The translations under genes and the position numbers were made by a program. Shown piece by piece: positions 8,069-61,546 of a stretch of 64,000 nucleotides of DNA. Position 1 is the first letter of the stretch; every line of letters starts with the position of its first letter. Origin of the DNA: Caldilineaceae bacterium (GTDB lineage Bacteria; Chloroflexota; Anaerolineae; Caldilineales; Caldilineaceae); contig DAOUHY010000265.1 in NCBI GenBank assembly GCA_034428435.1, forward strand, positions 16,408-80,407. Direction: 5' to 3'. A model generated the notes under the pieces. That model was not told the origin of the DNA and did not search any database. It saw nothing but the letters and a program-made list of their open reading frames with translations.

Positions 8069-8196
8069 GTTGCGCTCCTCGCATTCGCTTCCAGTTCAAT
8101 TGTCGACTTTTCGCCAGAATTGAAGGGCGAACAGCCATCTCATTGGACCTGCATCGGATAGAGGTCGGGGGGATTGGGGACAGATCGCTTTTTGGG

Positions 8197-8632
8197 GGTG
8201 CATCGCTGATTTGGAGTGGGAACAGTCAGGCGGGGAATCGGTGCCAGCGGTGGCGGGGGAATCGTTTACAGGCTTTTGGAGAAACGCAGGGCAGGCACGA
8301 GGGTGAGGAGAGAGTGGAGAGGAGCGAGGAGAGAGTGCCGCAGTGTAGTCTGCGGGGGACTGGCGGGACGTGGTTTGGCTGGACACTTTCGATTTGGCAC
8401 TCGTTACGAATAGCGACACCAGGTCGGCGAGGCATGTTGTAGGAGAGGGGGCGTTGCGGGGGCGGAGCCCCCGCACAAGGGAGGGCCGACTAGGCCCGAC
8501 CGCCCAGAAATGCAGTGGTCAGTAGTCAGTGGTCAGAGACGGCGCTCTGGCTGCCTCAGATTTGATCGCGGAGCGGCCATGGTTAGGTCTCTGCCAGAGG
8601 ATTGCGTTAGCTCACCCCCATTTTGGGATGCA
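8197..8632 (+). mobile_element. MITE-like non-autonomous element, copy A
   Basis: Imperfect terminal inverted repeats: 5' GGTGCATCGCTGATTTGG and 3' CCCCATTTTGGGATGCA. It is flanked by the identical 11-mer CGCTTTTTGGG at 8186-8196 and 8633-8643. It shares a 73-nt core (8434-8506) and most of its other sequence with copies at 36616-37079 and 61042-61499. No credible ORF. Confidence 0.7.
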
Positions 8633-8650
8633 CGCTTTTTGGGCAACCGT

Positions 8651-8720: not shown

Positions 8721-8933
8721 ATGTCCGACTGCACCGAATGCGGAACCTGGAATCCCGACGATAAGGAAGTTTGCTGGCGCTGCCAGGCCGTATTGCCGAG
8801 ACCGGTGGAGAACAAGCCGAAGCGCCGCCTGATGATACTGGGCATGCCGGTCTGGGTGTGGATTGTGGTTGGGTTGATCTTTGTCCTTCCTCTCTTTGGC
8901 CAGTGCGCGCAGCTTGGAGTCCCCGCCGGATAG
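8721..8933 (+). CDS. Small zinc-ribbon membrane protein
   Basis: MSDCTECGTWNPDDKEVCWRC (CxxC...CxxC) followed by one TM helix (LMILGMPVWVWIVVGLIFVLPLF). GGGGAAG lies upstream of the ATG at 8721. The TAG stop overlaps the next gene's GTG (TAGTG). Confidence 0.55.
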   Translation: MSDCTECGTWNPDDKEVCWRCQAVLPRPVENKPKRRLMILGMPVWVWIVVGLIFVLPLFGQCAQLGVPAG

Positions 8934-10015
8934 TGAACAGCGACGATAAGTCTTCGGAATCGGACAGCTTTTCTCTGTTAAAGGAGTTGAGCGAGACGCC
9001 TGGCGTCAGCGGCCAGGAAGACCGGATTCGCGCGCGTGTCAGCGACCATCTGGCCCTGCTGGTTGATGAACTGCACACAGACACTCTCGGTAATCTGACT
9101 GGTCTTAAGCGCGGTAGCGATTCGTCCGGCAGGCGGGTGATGGTGGCGGCGCACATGGATGAGATCGGCCTGATCGTTACCCGATTGGAGGAGGGCTTTG
9201 TGCGCTTTGCGCCGGTTGGCGGCGTAGACCTGGGGGCATTGCCGGCTCAGGAGGTAACGGTTCACGGCCGCTCTGATCTGCCGGGGCTGATCGCCAGCCG
9301 GCCGCCCCACGTTCTCTCCCAGGAGGAGCGGGGAAAACCTTTTGCCCAAGCTGATCTTTTCATAGACGTCGGTCTGGCCGCGGACAGGCTGGCAGAGTTC
9401 GTCTCCGTTGGGGATTTCATTTCCGTCCGCCAAAGTGCAGACAGGTTGGGTAACGGGCAGGCTACCGGCAAAGCCTTCGACAATCGCGTGTCGGTTGTCG
9501 TTCTGCTGCAGGCGCTGCGCATTCTGCAGGGACGCAGCCACGCTTGGGACATTTTCGCCGTGGTCACGGTGCAGGAGGAGATCGGTCTGCGCGGGGCCAA
9601 GACGGCCGCTTTTCGGGTAGCGCCGGATGTGGGGATCGCTCTCGACGTGACCTACGCGGAGCAGCCGGGCGCGACCCCTGAAGAGTCGCTTGCGATGGGA
9701 AGCGGACCGGCCATTGGGCTGGGGCCGAACCTGCATCCCGTTTTAAGAAAGCTGCTCGTCGACACGGCCGAGCGCGACGAGATTCCCTATACGAACGAGG
9801 TTCTGCCTGGAAATTCAGGGACCGACGCCTGGGCGATGCAGGTCTCGCAGTCCGGCATTCCTACTGCGCTGATTTCGGTACCGATCCGCAACATGCACAC
9901 GCCTGCGGAAACGGTCGCGCTCAAGGACATTGAACGGAGCGCGCGGCTGCTGGCTGAGACTATCTGCGAACTACCGGACGACCTGAACGCTCTGGCGCTC
10001 GACGGCGAGGCTTAG
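8933..10015 (+). CDS. M42 family metallopeptidase (FrvX/TET-like aminopeptidase), paralog 1
   Basis: LLKELSETPGVSGQEDRIR, AAHMDEIGLIV and VQEEIGLRGA. The track ORF starts at 8771, but family alignment and overlap with the upstream gene favour the GTG at 8933. Confidence 0.88.
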   Translation: MNSDDKSSESDSFSLLKELSETPGVSGQEDRIRARVSDHLALLVDELHTDTLGNLTGLKRGSDSSGRRVMVAAHMDEIGLIVTRLEEGFVRFAPVGGVDLGALPAQEVTVHGRSDLPGLIASRPPHVLSQEERGKPFAQADLFIDVGLAADRLAEFVSVGDFISVRQSADRLGNGQATGKAFDNRVSVVVLLQALRILQGRSHAWDIFAVVTVQEEIGLRGAKTAAFRVAPDVGIALDVTYAEQPGATPEESLAMGSGPAIGLGPNLHPVLRKLLVDTAERDEIPYTNEVLPGNSGTDAWAMQVSQSGIPTALISVPIRNMHTPAETVALKDIERSARLLAETICELPDDLNALALDGEA

Positions 10016-10068
10016 CCACCGAGGGCATCGGACGCCGGCGCGTATTGACGCACGCAAGATTTTTTGCC

Positions 10069-11091
10069 ATGAATGAACTGCTCGAGAAACTGTCCAAGGC
10101 CCGCGGGGTGGCGGGACATGAAGGCGAGGTGCGGGCCATTCTGCGGGAGGCGCTTGCCCCGCACGTGGAGGCGTTGACGGTCGACTCGATCGGCAACCTG
10201 ATTGTCCGCAAAGGAGGATCGGGCGACAGTAGAAAACACCGGGTGATGCTCGCCGCGCATATGGACGAAGTGGGCGGGATGGTTATGCGCGCCAATGCGG
10301 ACGGCACGGTGAAGTTTCGCAGCGTCGGCGGCCTGGATCCGCGCATTCTGCCGGGTAAAAGGGTTCGGATTGGGGCGCAGTCGGTGCCCGGGGTGATCAT
10401 GCGTGCGCCACATGCGGCGCGTTCGGGGAAGCGCGTGGCGCCGATTTCCGATCTACTGATCGACACGGGCGGCGCAGGTGGTATCGAGCCGGGCGACATG
10501 ATTACATTTGAGAGCGAGTATGAGGAGTACGGACGACTCTTGAAGGGCAAAGCATTTGACGACCGGGTAGGCTGCTATGTGCTGGCCGAGCTGATGAAGG
10601 GCGATTACGAATGCGAGCTCGTCGGGGTCTTCACCGTACAGGAAGAGATTGGCTTGCGCGGCGCGGGTGTGGCTGCGTACGCGGTCGAGCCGGACGTCGC
10701 GGTAGCGCTTGAAGGCACTGTAGCGGACGACCTGCCCAAGCAGCAAGACGTCAGTCCGACGACCGAACTGGGGAAGGGTCCGTCGATTTCGGTGATGGAC
10801 CGGAGCGCACATGCGGACCGGCGGCTTGTCCGCATTCTGACGGAGACCGCGACCGCCCACGACATTCCGTGGCAATTCAAGCAGCCCGGCGTCGGGGGAA
10901 CGGACGTGGGTACTATTCACCTGGCGCGCGAAGGCGTGCCCGCGGTGGCCGTTGCCGTGCCCTGCCGCTATATACACACTCCTGCAGCGCTGATGGACCC
11001 GGCGGACGTGAAGAATGCGATTGAACTGATGAGCAGAGCGCTATCCGGACCCTTGGGGCGGCCGTTGGAGGCCGAGCGGAGTGAAGCATGA
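10069..11091 (+). CDS. M42 family metallopeptidase, paralog 2
   Basis: MNELLEKLSKARGVAGHEGEVR, AAHMDEVGGMV and FTVQEEIGLRGA. The ATG at 10069 is preferred over the TTG at 10045. Confidence 0.9.
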   Translation: MNELLEKLSKARGVAGHEGEVRAILREALAPHVEALTVDSIGNLIVRKGGSGDSRKHRVMLAAHMDEVGGMVMRANADGTVKFRSVGGLDPRILPGKRVRIGAQSVPGVIMRAPHAARSGKRVAPISDLLIDTGGAGGIEPGDMITFESEYEEYGRLLKGKAFDDRVGCYVLAELMKGDYECELVGVFTVQEEIGLRGAGVAAYAVEPDVAVALEGTVADDLPKQQDVSPTTELGKGPSISVMDRSAHADRRLVRILTETATAHDIPWQFKQPGVGGTDVGTIHLAREGVPAVAVAVPCRYIHTPAALMDPADVKNAIELMSRALSGPLGRPLEAERSEA

Positions 11092-12089
11092 GAGCTTTGA
11101 TTGAGGAACTGTGCGGTGTCTTCGGCCCGAGCGGGCAGGAGGAACGGATCCGGGAGGTGATCAGCGGCCAACTGGACGGGCTGGTCGATGAGATGCGGAC
11201 GGACAGGCTCGGCAACCTGATCGGGGTGAAACGTCCGACCGTCAGCAGTGAAGGCGGCAAGCGGATCATGCTGGCTGCACACATGGACGAGATCGGTGTG
11301 ATGGTGACGCACGTTGACGCGCAGGGGTTCTGCCGCTTCACCACCATCGGAGGCGTGCTGATGAACTCCCTTATCGGCAGCCGCGTCCAATTTGCCAATG
11401 GCGTGGAAGGCGCGTTCGGGATGGAGGGCTCGCCGCTGGCGCGCGAACGGCCGACGCCGCAGAAGCTATTTCTGGACGTGGGGGCAGACTCGAAGGAAAA
11501 TGCGCGGGTTCAGGTTGGCGATACGGCCGTTTTTCGCAGTAGCTTCGGCGAGGTAGGGGACAGGTTGTTCGCTGCCAATTTGGATGACCGGATCGGGTGC
11601 GCGGTGCTTATCCAGACGCTGCGGGAGCTTGAGAGCTCCCCGCACGAAATCCTGGCCGTTTTCACGGTCCAGGAGGAAGTGGGTGTGCGCGGGGCCACGA
11701 CCGCGGGCTACGGACTGGAGCCGGAGATCATTCTTGCCATCGATGTTACGGCCACCGGTGACTTTCCGCAGGCGACGCCAATGGAGGTGGCGCTGGGGAA
11801 AGGCGCGGCAATCAAGGTCATGGACCGGCGCATGATTGCCCATCCAAAGGTACGCGGCTGGCTGGAAGACACAGCGCAGGCATTCGACATCCCTTACCAA
11901 TTGGAAGTGCTGGAGTTTGGCTCGACCGACGCCGCGGCAGTACAGGTCAGCCGCGCCGGCGTCCCCGCGGGGACGGTTTCCATTCCCTGCCGTTACGTTC
12001 ACTCCCCCTCGCAAGTAGCCGACTACAATGACGCGCTCGGCGCGGTACGCCTGCTGGTGAACGCGCTCAGCGGAGAGTATCCCTCGTAG
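11088..12089 (+). CDS. M42 family metallopeptidase, paralog 3
   Basis: LCGVFGPSGQEERIR, AAHMDEIGVMV and FTVQEEVGVRGA. The ATGA start/stop overlaps paralog 2. Confidence 0.9.
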   Translation: MRALIEELCGVFGPSGQEERIREVISGQLDGLVDEMRTDRLGNLIGVKRPTVSSEGGKRIMLAAHMDEIGVMVTHVDAQGFCRFTTIGGVLMNSLIGSRVQFANGVEGAFGMEGSPLARERPTPQKLFLDVGADSKENARVQVGDTAVFRSSFGEVGDRLFAANLDDRIGCAVLIQTLRELESSPHEILAVFTVQEEVGVRGATTAGYGLEPEIILAIDVTATGDFPQATPMEVALGKGAAIKVMDRRMIAHPKVRGWLEDTAQAFDIPYQLEVLEFGSTDAAAVQVSRAGVPAGTVSIPCRYVHSPSQVADYNDALGAVRLLVNALSGEYPS

Positions 12090-33154: not shown

Positions 33155-35410
33155 TCATCTGCGCGGACGGCCCCCGTTTCTCATACTGCGGTCGCGGTCG
33201 CGGTCGCGGTCGCGGCGTCCACCTCTGTCGCGGTCGCGGCCGCCGCCGCGGCGCCCACCGCGGTCGCGGTCACGAGCTTCCTCTGCACTCCAACCTTCCA
33301 ATACAGCTTGCCGGCTCAACCGAATTTTGCCTGCGGGATCGATGTCGATCACCATGGTTGTGAGTTCATCGCCGACGTTGGCGATTTCTTCCACGTTATT
33401 GACCCGGTAGTCGGCCAACTGACTGATGTGTACCAACCCGTCCACGCCGGGCAGCAGGTTGACAAATGCACCGTAGGCTTCGACTCTCACCACCTGTCCG
33501 GTGTAGATTTTGCCTATTTCGACCTCTTCGGTCAGAGATTCGATTTCGCGGCGGGCCTCTTCGGCAGCGAGACCGTTAAGGCCGGAGATAAACACCGAGC
33601 CGTCGTCGTCGATATCGATTTTAACCTCGTATCGTTCCTGCAGGGCTCGAACTGTCTTGCCGCCCGGGCCGATGATCTTGCCGATCTTCTCCGGGTCGAC
33701 GCTCACTGTCAGGATACGCGGCGCGTAGGGGCTTAGCTCCTCACGGGATTCGGGGAGAACCTCCAGCATCTTTTGCATTATGTGAAGGCGCCCCTGGCGG
33801 GCCTGCTCCAGCGCGATGCGCAGGATCTCGAAGTCCAGTCCTTTGATCTTGAGATCCATTTGCAAGGCAGTGATGCCATGACTGCTGCCGGCGACTTTGA
33901 AGTCCATGTCGCCGAGATGATCTTCGACGCCCTGGATATCGGACAACACCACGTAGTCCCCGGAGTCCTGGTCCTGCACCAAGCCCATTGCAATGCCGGA
34001 AACAGGGGCATCGATTGGGACGCCAGCGTCCATGAGCGCCAGCGTGCTTCCGCAGACTGAGCCCATGCTGGTCGAACCGTTACTGCTGACAGCCTCGCTC
34101 ACCAAGCGCAGGGTGTAGGGGAAATCTTCAGGAATAACGGTCTGCAGGGCACGTTCGGCGAGGGCGCCATGACCGATTTCGCGGCGTTTTGGACCCCTCA
34201 TGGGATAGGCTTCGCCGGTCGAATAGGGTGGGAAGTTGTAGTGATGGATATAGCGTTTTTCTTCTTCCGGCTGCAATGTGTAGAGGCGCTGGGCATCGCC
34301 CGGCGTGCCAAGTGTAGCAATTGTCAGGACGTGCGTTTCGCCGCGCATAAAGAAGCCGCTGCCGTGGACACGGGGAATGTTCCCCACCTGAACCCGGATC
34401 GGTCGTACGGTCTGGGGGTCGCGGCCATCGGGTCGGACGCTCTCGTCCAGGATGCGTCTGCGAACTGCGTCCTTGTAGAGGTTGTCCAACGTGTCGTCCA
34501 CGTCTCCGGCTTCGACCTCTCCTGTTCCGATCGGTTCGGACAGGGCCTCCATGGTTTCGTCGCGGATCGCGGCGAGGCGGGACTTGCGTTCGTCACGGTC
34601 CGTTGTCCCGGCCACGGCTGTCGCGACTTTGTCACGCGCCAGCTGGTTCACCTGTTCGACAGTGTGATCGGCAGCTATGAAGACGGGATAGTCGGTATGT
34701 TTTTCTTTGCCGACGTCTGCCTGCATCTGCTGAATCGTCTGAATCGCCGGCTGCATCGATTCATAGGCCAAACGCAGCCCATCCAGCATGATATCTTCCG
34801 GGAGCTCGTTTGCGCCGGCTTCCACCATCAGGATATTGTCGGCCGTACCGGCAACCTGCAGGCCGAGAGTGCTCAACTGCATATCGGAAGCTGTCGGGTT
34901 GACAACAAACTCGCCGTCAACATAGGCGACTGAAGCTGCGCCAACGGGCCCATCCCAAGGAATGTCGCTGATTGACAGGGCAGCTGAAGCTGAGATGATC
35001 GCCAGTGGGTCGATCAGGTGCTCGTTGTCAGAACTGAGCGCGGTGAGGATGATTTGAACTTCGTTGCGCATACCCTTTGGGAAGAGCGGGCGCAGGGGCC
35101 GGTCCACCAGGCGGCAGAGGAGGATCGCCTGTTCGCTAGGCCGGCCTTCACGGCGGAAGAGGTTGCCAGGAATACGTCCGGCGGCGTAGAGTTTTTCTTC
35201 AAAATCGACGGTTAAGGGAAAGAAGCCGATTCCCGGCCTCACGCCTCTATCCATCGTGGCAGTGGCGAGGATTACCGTGTCGCCGCACCTGACGGTGACG
35301 GCGCCGCCTGCCTGCTGGGCAAGGATACCCGTCTCGATACTAAGCTCTTTGTCGCCCAAAGTCGTCGTATAGGTTTGGGCGCCTTCAAACAATCTGAATT
35401 GGTCCATCAT
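33155..35410 (-). CDS. pnp: Polyribonucleotide nucleotidyltransferase (PNPase) with Arg/Asp/Gly-rich C-terminal tail
   Basis: [10 protein letters not shown] domain [16 protein letters not shown]1 domain [18 protein letters not shown], and tail [29 protein letters not shown]. Confidence 0.97.
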
Positions 35411-35937: not shown

Positions 35938-36207
35938 TTATCGCCGTAGACCAAGCCTCTGAATCAGCTGGCGATAGCGGTTCACATCCTTTCTGGCCAG
36001 GTATGCCAAATGGCGGCGGCGTTGACCGACCAACTTCAACAGGCCACGACGCGACCCTTCATCATGCTTGTGCGCCTTCAAGTGGTCGGTCAGGGCATTG
36101 ATGCGCGTGGTAAGGAGGGCGACCTGCACCTCCGGGGATCCGGTGTCCTGGTCGAAAGTCCGGTATTCCTCAATGATCTTTGTCTTTTCGTCCGTCGAAA
36201 TACTCAT
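35938..36207 (-). CDS. rpsO: 30S ribosomal protein S15
   Basis: 89 aa: [49 protein letters not shown]. The track ORF (to 36336) over-extends; the ATG is at 36207. Confidence 0.97.
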
Positions 36208-36615
36208 GTGGTACTCCTGAACTCCTTTCCTTTTGGACCAGAGAATCCCGAATGCGCTGTCCAATTGTAACCATTCTCTGGAGGGCCGCCTGTTGCGTTG
36301 AGAGAGCCAAATCATCGCTGGAATACCTTGGCGCATGATCCAGCCGGTACTGAATCAGTTTAGCACATGAGCAGACGACTCCCAAACTTTCGCCGTCATG
36401 TCACTATACGTAGAACCTCGTTATGGGGTCGCGTCAGGGCCTTGAGAATCCGAAGTCGCAACAGAATGCTGGGTAGATTCCGGGTGCAGAGACATGGCTC
36501 AACAGTTATCCAAGGTTCTTTTTCGGACGCGGATTCAAGAGATTGACTGGATGGGAATACGACTGGGAGACCACGGCAAGGCGCCAGGAGAATTGACGGG
36601 GCATTGCCGTGGTGT

Positions 36616-37079
36616 AAGGTGCATCCCTGATTTGGGGAGGGAACGGCCTGGCGGGGAATCAGTGCCAGCGGCGGCTGGCGTTGTATAGCGTCTTTGGGCG
36701 AGACGCAGTGCAGGCGCCGGGCCCGGCCGTACGGTGGCGTCCGTCAGTTGGGGAGGGTGCGAGGGCAGGCACATGGCCGGCACCTACGGGGATCTGATGG
36801 GACTGGCGGGACGTGGTCGGGCTGGACACCTTCGATTAGGCACCTGTTACGAACATCGACACCAGGTCGACCAGGGATGTTGTAGGAGAGGGGGCGTTGC
36901 GGGGGCGGAGCCCCCGCACAAGGGAGGGCCGACTAGGCCCGACCGCCCAAAGGCGAGGAGAGAGGGGAGAGGAGTGAGGAGAGAGACGCCGTTTCTTTTG
37001 CCTCAGAGTTGATCGCGGGGTGGCAATGGTTGGTCTGCCGCCAAAAGTATACGAGTGTTCGCCCCTATTTTGGGATGCA
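36616..37079 (+). mobile_element. MITE-like non-autonomous element, copy B
   Basis: Same family as 8197-8632. Ends are AAGGTGCATCCCTGATTTGGGG and CCCCTATTTTGGGATGCA. It is flanked by GCCGTGGTGT at 36606-36615 and 37080-37089. The 73-nt core at 36877-36949 is identical to copy A. Confidence 0.7.
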
Positions 37080-37096
37080 GCCGTGGTGTCGACCTC

Positions 37097-37125
37097 TTGA
37101 AAACAGAATTGGCTGCCCTTATAAT
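37097..37125 (+). promoter_or_regulatory. Predicted sigma70-like promoter (TTGAAA-17-TATAAT)
   Basis: Hexamers at 37097-37102 and 37120-37125. The -35 box starts after a 17-nt gap from the MITE copy B end, about 210 nt upstream of queG. Pattern match only. Confidence 0.4.
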
Positions 37126-37336: not shown

Positions 37337-38740
37337 GTGTCCATGAGGTCTGACCACAGCTTAACCGCATTGTTAAAGTCCGAAGCGGGACGCTTAGGTT
37401 TCGACTTCTGTCGAATCGTCAAGGTGGATGAAGCGGCGCATGCGGAGTTTTTTGTCCGCTGGCTCGGGCTGGGCCGGGCCGGGGAAATGGCGTACCTGGC
37501 TCGAAATCTACAGAAAAGGCGTAATCCGGCCCTGCTGGCCGAGGAGGGCCCGCCCTTTCGATCGCTTGTCGTGCTGGGCGTTGACTATCATCGCTTCGAT
37601 CTGGCGCCGGAGGTTTTGAGCGACAGGTCGCGCGGCATCATCGCCCGCTATGCCTGGGGGGAGGACTATCACGAGATAATTCGTCCGCTGCTGTATGAAC
37701 TGGATGGCTGGTTGCGAGTCCGGACAGGCCGCTCGACTTTGGGGAAAGGGCTGGTTGATACAGGTCCGGTACTGGAAAGGGACTGGGCGCAACAGGCCGG
37801 CATAGGCTTTACCGGAAAAAACTGCTGTACGATTCACCCAGCGAGGGGAAGCTGGGTCTTTCTGGCAACGCTCCTGGTGCCGGAGGCGCTGGCCAGCGAC
37901 CCGCCTGTGGAAGCGGTTCGCTCGGCAGACTTGAGTGTGGAGGAGACACTTGCGGGCCTACCGGCCGGGGGCGATTACGGGGCGTGGCAGCTGCAAGAGA
38001 ACAGCTGCGTGCCGCCTGTGAATCGTGAGAGCAGTGCTCTCGAATTCGAGGCGGATGCGCGTGCGTCTTCGCCGGTCACTTGCGGTCACTGTACACGATG
38101 CCTGGATGCCTGCCCCACCGATGCCTTTGCAGGCCCGTTTCACCTGGATCCCCAGCGCTGTATATCCTACTGGACGATTGAATCGCGCCAGCCGATTCCG
38201 CGACCGCTGCGGGGCATGTTCGGTAACCGGATTTTCGGGTGCGACATCTGCCAGGAGGTATGTCCCTGGAATCAACGGCTAGCAGAGAGGACGCCTCTGC
38301 TGAAAGGGCTGGAGGCTCAACAGGCGCGCGTCGCGCCGCCGCTGCTGGAGGGTTTCGATCGACGCCTGCCTTACTGGCTTGAGCCTGGCGCTTTCGCCGA
38401 GCGTTGGCGGCGGTCGCCGCTTAAGCGGGCAAAGCGGGCAGGGATGCTGCGCAATGTCTGCATTGCCCTCGGAAACTGGGGCGACACGGCGGCCTTTGCA
38501 GGATTGGAAGCAGCTGCGGCCGACGAATCGGCGCTGGCGCGAGGACACGCGGCCTGGGGGCTGGGTGAACTGCTGCGCCGGCACAACGATGCTCGGGCCG
38601 CGTCCTGTCTTGAATCCCAGCTTGCCGACGAAGCAGATTCGTGGGTAAGGGAGGAGATTGCCATCGCGCTCGGGCGCGGGAATGAAACTTTAGCCGCGAG
38701 CAGGCGTAGAGATGAATATAGCCGAACTGCCGGACACTGA
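37337..38740 (+). CDS. queG: tRNA epoxyqueuosine(34) reductase QueG with C-terminal HEAT-like repeats
   Basis: GIGFTGKNCCTIHPARGSWVFLATLL, and ferredoxin motifs CGHCTRCLDACPTDA and CDICQEVCPWN. The start is the GTG at 37337 or the ATG at 37343. Confidence 0.92.
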   Translation: MSMRSDHSLTALLKSEAGRLGFDFCRIVKVDEAAHAEFFVRWLGLGRAGEMAYLARNLQKRRNPALLAEEGPPFRSLVVLGVDYHRFDLAPEVLSDRSRGIIARYAWGEDYHEIIRPLLYELDGWLRVRTGRSTLGKGLVDTGPVLERDWAQQAGIGFTGKNCCTIHPARGSWVFLATLLVPEALASDPPVEAVRSADLSVEETLAGLPAGGDYGAWQLQENSCVPPVNRESSALEFEADARASSPVTCGHCTRCLDACPTDAFAGPFHLDPQRCISYWTIESRQPIPRPLRGMFGNRIFGCDICQEVCPWNQRLAERTPLLKGLEAQQARVAPPLLEGFDRRLPYWLEPGAFAERWRRSPLKRAKRAGMLRNVCIALGNWGDTAAFAGLEAAAADESALARGHAAWGLGELLRRHNDARAASCLESQLADEADSWVREEIAIALGRGNETLAASRRRDEYSRTAGH

Positions 38741-60832: not shown

Positions 60833-61041
60833 TGCCGAAAATCCGTTTGTGTGGAATTTAACAAACTCCCGCGAAAGTATAGCATAGCGATTTCTGATAG
60901 CGAAAGTTCGTACCCTTCGCAAACGCGTTCAAAGTGGAGGCGATGACTACATATTCGAGGGATTCGATAGGATAGGGGCGGGGCTGCTGAAAAGATCCTT
61001 CGATGCGACCCGTCAGCATGCTTGTTGAAGTCAATCGATAC

Positions 61042-61499
61042 GGGTGCATCCCAGATTTGGGGTGGGAACAGTCTGGCAGGGAATCAGTGCCAGCGGTGGC
61101 CGGGGTTGTTTGCCGTCTTTGGGCGAGGCGCAGTGCAGGCGCCAGCCCTGGCCGTACGATGGCGTCCGTCAGTTGGGGCGGGTGCGAGGGCAGGCACCTA
61201 CGGGGAATTGATAGGGACGGCGGAACGTGGTCTGGCGAAGCCCGGTCGAACAGGCACTTATCGCCAATGTCGACACCCGGTCGATAAGGCATGTTGTAGG
61301 AGAGGGGGCGTTGCGGGGGCGGAGCCCCCGCACAAGGGAGGGCCGAATAGGCCCGACCGCCCAGAACTGCAGCAGTTAGTAGTCAGTAGTTAGTGGTCAG
61401 AGACGGCGCTCATTCTGGCGGAAACTGGAATGGGAACTGACCATGGGTTGGGTGCCTCCAGAGATATACGAAAGTTCGCCCCAATATTGGGATGCAGAC
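61042..61499 (+). mobile_element. MITE-like non-autonomous element, copy C
   Basis: Same family. The 5' end is GGGTGCATCCCAGATTTGGGG and the 3' end is CCCCAATATTGGGATGCA(GAC). It is flanked by ATCGATAC at 61034-61041 and 61500-61507. The core at 61291-61363 differs from A and B at one loop position. Confidence 0.65.
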
Positions 61500-61516
61500 A
61501 TCGATACCGACGGGCT

Positions 61517-61546
61517 TTGACAGGAGATTTTGGTTCGTGCTAGAAT
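61517..61546 (+). promoter_or_regulatory. Predicted sigma70-like promoter (TTGACA-18-TAGAAT)
   Basis: Hexamers at 61517-61522 and 61541-61546. The -35 box starts after a 17-nt gap from the MITE copy C end, about 70 nt upstream of the plus-strand nuoA. Confidence 0.45.

Follow-up and report, generated by a model that had tools for sequence, protein, structure and literature searches.

A family of miniature inverted-repeat elements inserted upstream of promoters in Caldilineaceae, probably moved by an ISKra4-type transposase

The insertion sequences (ISs) ISKra2, ISKra4, ISKra5 and ISKra6 come from Ktedonobacter (Chloroflexi). They are included among the promoter-targeting ISs of Guerillot et al. 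2014 (PMC3942029), according to whom sigma-A promoters are targeted 15-17 bases upstream of their -35 box by TnGBS and ISLre2 (p-MULT 3) and by part of the ISKra4 group (p-MULT 4), the distance being 13-17 bp when counted from the inverted-repeat junction as in the legend to their Figure 2. In the same study, these elements make target-site duplications of 8 or 9 bp and have inverted repeats of 18-39 bp with a terminal C; near-symmetric inverted repeats lead to promoters on either side of the element; the Chloroflexi are among the host phyla of p-MULT 4; and IS256 insertions occur without promoter enrichment. The present work concerns a 64,000-nt stretch of the genome of a Caldilineaceae bacterium (assembly GCA_034428435.1, contig DAOUHY010000265.1, positions 16,408-80,407 of the forward strand; hereafter the window), in which a repeat of about 440-470 bp occurs in three copies, A, B and C, with pairwise identities of 73-78%. 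Copy B, located between rpsO and queG, is probably a transposable element of the miniature inverted-repeat kind (MITE), from a Caldilineaceae family that inserts some 15 bases upstream of promoters and is most likely mobilised by a Mutator-like transposase of the ISKra4 type. The family is previously undescribed and has so far been met with in Caldilineaceae (Chloroflexota) genomes only, and a literature search returned no report of MITEs in Caldilineaceae.

Copy B (36617..37082, plus strand) is 466 bp long, within the size range of MITEs (about 50-800 bp), including outer triplets AGG and GCC that stand where the family consensus has GGG and CCC. It occupies, as the preliminary description of this DNA had it, the spacer between the divergent genes rpsO (35938-36207, minus) and queG (37337-38740, plus); pnp precedes rpsO, and the database protein closest to the QueG of the window has 94% identity with it. 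The left terminal inverted repeat, AGGTGCATCCCTGATTTGGGGAG (36617..36639, plus; consensus GGGTGCATCCCAGATTTGGGGTG), is answered by CGCCCCTATTTTGGGATGCAGCC on the right (37060..37082, plus), and the inner inverted termini TGCATCCCTGATTTGGGG (36620-36637) and CCCCTATTTTGGGATGCA (37062-37079), 18 nt each, are 78% complementary. In the three window copies the inverted repeats extend over 18-23 nt, longer than the minimum of 10-15 bp for MITEs, with 71-83% complementarity, and their consensus is common to 29 aligned copies; copy B shares with A and C not only its termini, as had been noticed, but also most of its interior. The open reading frames (ORFs) of copy B (63-92 aa) give zero Pfam matches, and insertions and deletions between copies disrupt every reading frame. 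These properties support a mobile, non-coding element with inverted repeats and a target-site duplication.

A perfect direct repeat of 10 nt, GCCGTGGTGT, is indeed present on both sides of copy B (36606..36615 and 37080..37089), and the preliminary description took it for the duplication, with the element ending at TGCA. A survey of 38 elements bounded by TGCATCCC...GGGATGCA, all from related Caldilineaceae loci, leads to a different register. These loci are designated by L numbers below, and the window itself overlaps none of them. The common anatomy is a duplication of 8-9 bp, GGG, TGCATCCC...GGGATGCA, CCC and the duplication again. The 8-mers flanking the element are identical at 8/8 positions in seven elements, at 7/8 in seven more and at 6/8 in two, so that 16 of the 38 reach at least 6/8, against 0.5% of the pairings in a null where left and right flanks of different elements were paired randomly (5000 trials); the suspicion that the repeat around copy B exceeds coincidence is thereby borne out, as is the expectation that flanking repeats would prove a general property of the family. 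An 8-bp duplication fits about 14 elements and a 9-bp one about seven further elements, at odds with the anticipated constant length of 10-11 bp. In this register the duplications of copy B are GTGGTGTA (36609..36616) and GTGGTGTC (37083..37090), 7/8 identical, and the true termini are GGG-TGCA...TGCA-CCC, about three bases further out at each end than first proposed; two to three bases of the 10-nt repeat are probably fortuitous. The right triplet of copy B, GCC, equals the three bases upstream of its left duplication, and L097, the closest relative, whose flank is about 97% identical, has TGCA-CCC-GTGGCGTC at the right junction of the same site.

The other window copies can be read in the same way. 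Copy A (8197..8635, plus) has the duplication TTTTTGGG at 8189-8196 and 8636-8643 and is flanked by an 11-nt repeat, CGCTTTTTGGG; its right triplet, CGC, was inherited with the terminus of its subfamily: L074, L034 and L084, which are other loci, likewise end TGCACGC. Copy C (61042..61499, plus) has a perfect 8-bp duplication, ATCGATAC, at 61034-61041 and 61500-61507, three nt away from TGCA on either side.

A real duplication of 10-11 bp around an element that ends at TGCA would imply a mover from a long-duplication family such as IS4/IS231, groups whose duplications measure 10-13 bp. This explanation draws on the perfect 10-nt repeat of copy B and the 11-nt repeat of copy A, on CCCAGTGGGGT, which occurs three times around a tandem pair in L098, on TCC-ATCAA[T/C]AT, which flanks one L020 element, and on a TGCA that is better conserved than the outer triplets. 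It is nevertheless quite improbable, given the 8-bp and 9-bp duplications counted above and outer triplets that mismatch the opposite flank: among the 16 well-duplicated elements, extending the repeat into the triplet yields 0-1 matches out of 3 in 14 and an extended match in two. The nearest relative of copy B has CCC and not GCC, and the CGC of copy A is common to a subfamily at unrelated loci. Duplications of 10-13 bp were not found family-wide, the mode being 8-9 bp. Among the Table S1 entries of PMC3942029 compared here, moreover, ISs of the ISKra4 group begin GGGTGC, which makes GGG a genuine terminus.

Members of the family have one end 14-18 nt upstream of a sigma-70-type -35 box. Promoters adjoining copies B and C were seen by eye and then confirmed by a promoter scan: the sigma-70-like promoter of queG (TTGAAA-17-TATAAT, 37097..37125, plus) starts 14 nt after the end of copy B and its box is conserved in relatives, and the promoter beside copy C (TTGACA-18-TAGAAT, 61517..61546) lies 17 nt from the end of that copy; beside copy A there is only a weak promoter-like site (7/12), at 15 nt. 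The scan applied one fixed promoter-calling rule to the 66-nt outward flank of 97 element ends. Twenty of these give outward sigma-70-like matches, and every one places its -35 box 14-18 nt from the outer triplet (three at 14 nt, twelve at 15, three at 16, one at 17 and one at 18), with 0.09 expected by chance at those five positions from the background of 1.9e-4 per nt per strand in the same sequences. The rest of these flanks is free of matches, and so is the opposite strand. Promoters adjoin both types of end, eight on the left and twelve on the right.

Duplications of 8-9 bp are made by several IS families, so that the MITE might instead be moved by another of them (IS256, IS1595, ISL3 or IS1), with selection, and not targeting by the enzyme, keeping the promoter-side copies. 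Such an account would also sit well with the fact that the cognate transposase was not found in the related loci or by protein search, and a bias of survival towards intergenic sites is common among MITEs (PMC10969869). It is unlikely all the same: selection for harmless sites would not yield a peak 5 nt wide, at 14-18 nt, in flanks of 66 nt that are otherwise empty, IS256 insertions are not enriched at promoters (PMC3942029), and, among the compared entries of Table S1, the terminal GGGTGCA fits those of the ISKra4 group but not the ends of IS256, ISLre2 or ISAzba1.

The end sequence is the third of the features that, independently of one another, argue for the ISKra4 group, beside duplication length and target site. 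The imperfect terminal inverted repeats of about 22 bp open with GGGTGCATCCC, which is also the start of the MITE consensus, and the consensus ends, GGGTGCATCCC...GGGATGCACCC, are of the GGGTGC(A/G) type with a terminal C, copy B itself having AGG...GCC. In the compared entries of Table S1 (PMC3942029), the ISKra4-group elements ISAcce1, ISBeg3, ISCasp2, ISCasp3 and ISAcas3 start with GGGTGCAT, GGGTGCAG, GGGTGCGA, GGGTGCGG and GGGCGTAG, respectively; the MITE shares with them the terminal GGGTGC(A/G) and C, and its first 8 nt are identical to those of ISAcce1. By comparison, the ISAzba1 group starts GGAG... or GAGAG..., ISLre2 GTCCGTGTCAA or GATCGTGTCAA, and one entry of the IS256 family GGGACTG. 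Because the MITE consensus carries this ISKra4-group terminal signature, the GGG and CCC outer triplets are assigned to the element. The duplications of 8-9 bp and the distance of 14-18 nt from the -35 box (published range, 13-17) also agree with the group, as do promoters at either end where the inverted repeats are near-symmetric and the occurrence of p-MULT 4 in Chloroflexi. The fraction of promoter-positive junctions in the portion of the published table used here (4/20, 3/13 and 1/2; PMC3942029) is similar to that of the MITE, 20/97. In contrast with the ISs of the group, which measure 1.4-3.7 kb, the MITE measures 0.1-0.5 kb, is without a transposase gene and has a conserved structured passenger module. 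TnGBS and ISLre2 resemble it in having duplications of 8-9 bp and in inserting, in an oriented way, 15-17 bp upstream of -35 boxes; they differ in strongly asymmetric inverted repeats, which lead to a single orientation, and in the listed ends, GTCCGTGTCAA or GATCGTGTCAA and not GGGTGCA.

Duplication length is thus informative about the transposase family, as had been anticipated, when taken jointly with end sequence and target site: once the anatomy is corrected, the ISKra4 group is indicated, while the figures of 10-11 bp would have pointed to an IS4/IS231-type mover. In the mechanism proposed, the MITE would be moved in trans by a DDE enzyme from the ISKra4 group of prokaryotic Mutator-like transposases. 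This enzyme would bind the inverted repeats and make cuts staggered by 8-9 nt at a set distance upstream of a promoter, and repair of the gaps would leave the target-site duplication.

Several observations weigh against this reading. Some of the 20 promoter matches are corresponding loci in related genomes, which brings the number of independent loci to about 16, and about 80% of the ends are without a strong promoter at the expected distance. The flanking repeat looks 10-11 bp long in four cases (A, B, the L020 element and the L098 tandem pair, of which A and L098 fall outside the 38-element set), the right triplet being equal in each to the bases upstream of the left duplication, and such cases are slightly more frequent than chance predicts. 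The modal duplication of the MITE is 8 bp, as compared with 9 in the four ISKra4-group entries for which the consulted part of the published table gives a value. Lastly, the assignment to the ISKra4 group is drawn from end sequence, duplication length and target site, and the search for the cognate transposase was negative: about 0.8 Mb of related loci contain no such gene between the family inverted repeats (GGGTGCATCCCAGATTTGGGG-type ends), and none turned up in the metagenome scan or among the protein-search matches.

Other searches for a parent element were equally negative. A tblastn search with ISKra4 N-terminal fragments gave no match in the related loci, a transposase profile search returned short cyanobacterial fragments only, and the literature search yielded no report linking ISKra4 and MITEs as parent and derivative. 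Candidates for an autonomous parent were discarded one after the other. Among pairs of inverted-repeat-like sequences 0.65-4.5 kb apart none is convincing; a 4.8-kb pair in L053 encloses ordinary genes and a separate mini element of about 100 bp; an extra segment of 1.8 kb in L093 holds an ATPase gene; the L098 spacer contains an IS, which is unrelated, being a DDE_Tnp_1 element (IS5-like) with other ends; and the protein families that recur near the copies are transporters and oxidoreductases.

Two further short families, of about 100 bp (L053 3155-3256; L020 2742-2833; L108 1178-1289) and about 160 bp (L092 7541-7704 and 7709-7872), have the same GGGTGCATCCC ends, unrelated interiors and duplications of 8-9 bp. 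Both are situated 15-16 nt from promoter-like sites. Several families with identical ends would be expected if one transposase served multiple non-autonomous families. Tandem arrays of two or three elements with one duplication present three times (L098 1986-3726; L020 2733-3317; L092 7530-7890) are consistent with repeated insertion at one promoter-defined position.

The rpsO-queG spacer illustrates what such targeting would entail. It is also occupied in L097 (QueG 94% identical), L098 (85%) and L099 (81%), and in L098 it contains two elements in tandem and an unrelated IS5-like insertion. L101, a more distant relative (QueG 72%), has an element-free spacer of 428 bp in which the promoters stand back to back; it is too diverged for alignment base by base, and no clean empty site was found among the locus pairs compared. 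The first interpretation of copy B, a single ancient insertion shared by the relatives, has been weakened by promoter targeting and by the identity of the left arm, which shares about 90% identity with copies that other genomes have at unrelated loci but about 85% with the copy found at this site in L099. A simple shared origin is also opposed by the conservation of the element, which goes far beyond that of neutral sites (65% identity at third positions of queG codons, and a non-element spacer that is unalignable), and by the wholesale difference between copy B and the L097 copy after the core. If the target is set by a promoter and not by a sequence, the same site could be hit repeatedly; because the promoter would fix the target, recurrent insertion at one position would explain both the triple-duplication arrays and the occupancy of this spacer in several genomes. 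Recurrent independent insertion at the rpsO-queG site is thus a reasonable alternative to common inheritance. Interior segments also appear to be exchanged between copies by recombination: the segment following the core is wholly different between copy B and the L097 copy despite flanks about 97% identical, and L075 and L021, with flanks 97.8% identical and the same duplication, differ in their heptamer types.

Further features were noted at this site in related loci. In L098 (2300-3320), the IS lies inside a MITE copy and encodes a 301-aa DDE_Tnp_1 protein between inverted repeats GGGCCTTATGCTAGTT, with a short TAGTA-like duplication. The spacer of L102 (2300-2480) contains a different tandem repeat, with units like GCGTTTACGA, and a degenerate inverted-repeat-like sequence where the left end of the MITE would be. 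In L100 (2700-3000), a more distant relative, a core-bearing repeat is found downstream of the queG promoter-like box, and there the core would belong to the queG leader transcript.

The interior of the element contains a near-invariant, GC-rich core of 60 nt (36890..36949, plus, in copy B; 8447-8506 in A and 61304-61363 in C), predicted to form a three-way junction of two hairpins and an outer closing stem. Its sequence is GGGGGCGTTGCGGGGGCGGAGCCCCCGCACAAGGGAGGGCCGA(A/C)TAGGCCCGACCGCCCA; copies A, B and C differ in it by one loop base, while their arms differ by 22-27%. The plus-strand RNA is predicted to fold with -46.8 kcal/mol (z = -4.2), compared with -38.5 kcal/mol (z = -2.4) for the minus strand. 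A covariance model, against which the core of copy B scores 90.5 bits, finds 108 core copies in 804 kb, of which 50, from several genomes, are the identical 60-mer and few are intermediate, a count biased by the collection of the loci with an exact core 32-mer; core copies reached through the inverted repeat or through synteny show 0-5% change or partial deletion. Covariation in the core is weak, with double changes at two pairs of hairpin 1 and several G-U pairs that fit the plus-strand RNA; RNAalifold on 29 copies gave no covariation support outside the core. Visual inspection alone suggested a possible stem in the right arm, formed by CTCTGG/CCAGAG in copy A and by CTTTTG/CAAAAG in copy B. 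No Rfam family matches the window at the gathering threshold, and copy B gives chance-level matches only at a permissive threshold; ARAGORN reports neither tRNA nor tmRNA. A small peptide encoded in the core behind a Shine-Dalgarno-like AGGAG was considered and rejected, as variants replace AGGAG yet keep the stem.

Just after the core, copy B has a heptamer array, GAGGAGA/GAGGGGA/GAGGAGT/GAGGAGA (36955..36986, plus); the other arrays of the window are at 8513-8536, 61370-61400 and 8302-8338. Arrays count 3-5 units. Copies A and C have units of the CAGTGGT/CAGTAGT types, and other copies have CAGGGGT or CAGTTTT; even where two genomes are nearly identical, their arrays at one locus differ (L021/L075; L014/L081). 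With the CAGTAGT/TAGTGGT types, each of the three frames is closed by stop codons, and arrays of CAGGGGT could fold into a G-quadruplex. Cyanobacterial STRR sequences are one described kind of intergenic heptamer repeat. Others, known from filamentous bacteria, are TAACTGA (PMC4679880) and the G-quadruplex-forming GGGNATC (PMC4692102); as in Caldilineaceae, these form arrays of 3-5 units in intergenic positions upstream of genes, with several unit types, some of them G-rich. The Caldilineaceae arrays differ in being located inside a transposon, beside a conserved core, and in their units (CAGTGGT, GAGGAGA, CAGGGGT and CAGTTTT).

The core and heptamers are also present in a second repeat family without the TGCATCCC inverted repeats; loci with the core include L002, L014, L016, L022, L025, L027, L029 and others. 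By crude ORF calling, core and downstream gene have the same orientation in 31 of 45 cases (versus 14). Together with the swapping of interior modules between copies, these two observations are what could be cited for elements that are not transposons at all but resident, intergenic and structured, such as a small RNA gene or REP/BIME-like sequences, spread by recombination and flanked by incidental repeats. This is very improbable, as the flank duplications far exceed the null, three unrelated interiors share the same ends, the ends keep a fixed distance from promoters and Rfam holds no matching family. Within the transposon interpretation, core and hypervariable heptamers could conceivably constitute a functional cassette and not inert passenger DNA; it might act in cis, as RNA or as DNA, or be a small unit that is itself mobile, and the MITE would deliver it to the upstream edge of many promoters as a portable regulatory module in sponge-associated Caldilineaceae; this proposal is offered tentatively, as a possibility of rather low likelihood.

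The family is abundant within its hosts. Scanning of a species-representative genome collection with a 32-mer, chosen where the element is most conserved, gave at least 96 stretches in at least seven Caldilineaceae assemblies; among the matches listed, all are in Caldilineaceae metagenome-assembled genomes, several with sponge-type bin names. Many of the matches are at contig ends, as expected of a high-copy repeat, and the genes neighbouring the copies are ordinary metabolic and transport genes. A BLAST search of a plasmid collection with copy B gave short chance matches in Streptomyces only, a 17-mer of the inverted repeat gave two chance matches in viral contigs, both AT-rich giant-virus contigs, and a 20-mer of the inverted repeat found only seven stretches in metagenomes. 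Two of the latter, L107 and L111, were rejected as element ends, L107 being inside a thioredoxin-like gene. In comparison with bacterial MITEs such as QMITE2 of Coxiella and MITEAba12 (PMC10969869, PMC11602168), the family has in common inverted repeats, flanking direct repeats, the absence of a transposase, a length below 500-800 bp, many intergenic copies and a transcript predicted to fold stably with its ends paired. It differs in being GC-rich (about 60-65%), where bacterial MITEs are typically AT-rich, and in its fixed distance from promoters.

Elsewhere in the window, three adjacent paralogous genes (about 330-410 aa; ORFs 8771-12089) lie directly downstream of copy A; they form a protein cluster and share a DNA repeat, 64-71% identical, at 9548-9627, 10615-10694 and 11646-11725. 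The 3' end of pnp (33155-33260, minus) encodes an unusual Arg/Asp/Gly-rich C-terminal tail of polynucleotide phosphorylase.

Targeting of the region upstream of promoters has been known for a few autonomous Mutator-like elements, namely TnGBS, ISLre2 and some ISs of the ISKra4 group, and is here seen for gene-less derivatives. For the annotation of Caldilineaceae genomes, it provides a simple rule, the end of an element marking a promoter about 15 nt away, and the MITE repeat explains short-read assembly breaks in the genomes of these symbionts. One site may be occupied independently in different lineages, and shared insertions are therefore weak phylogenetic markers. Follow-up would be most worthwhile for the conserved passenger module: if the core is functional, the family would be a natural system that places a regulatory cassette beside many promoters.

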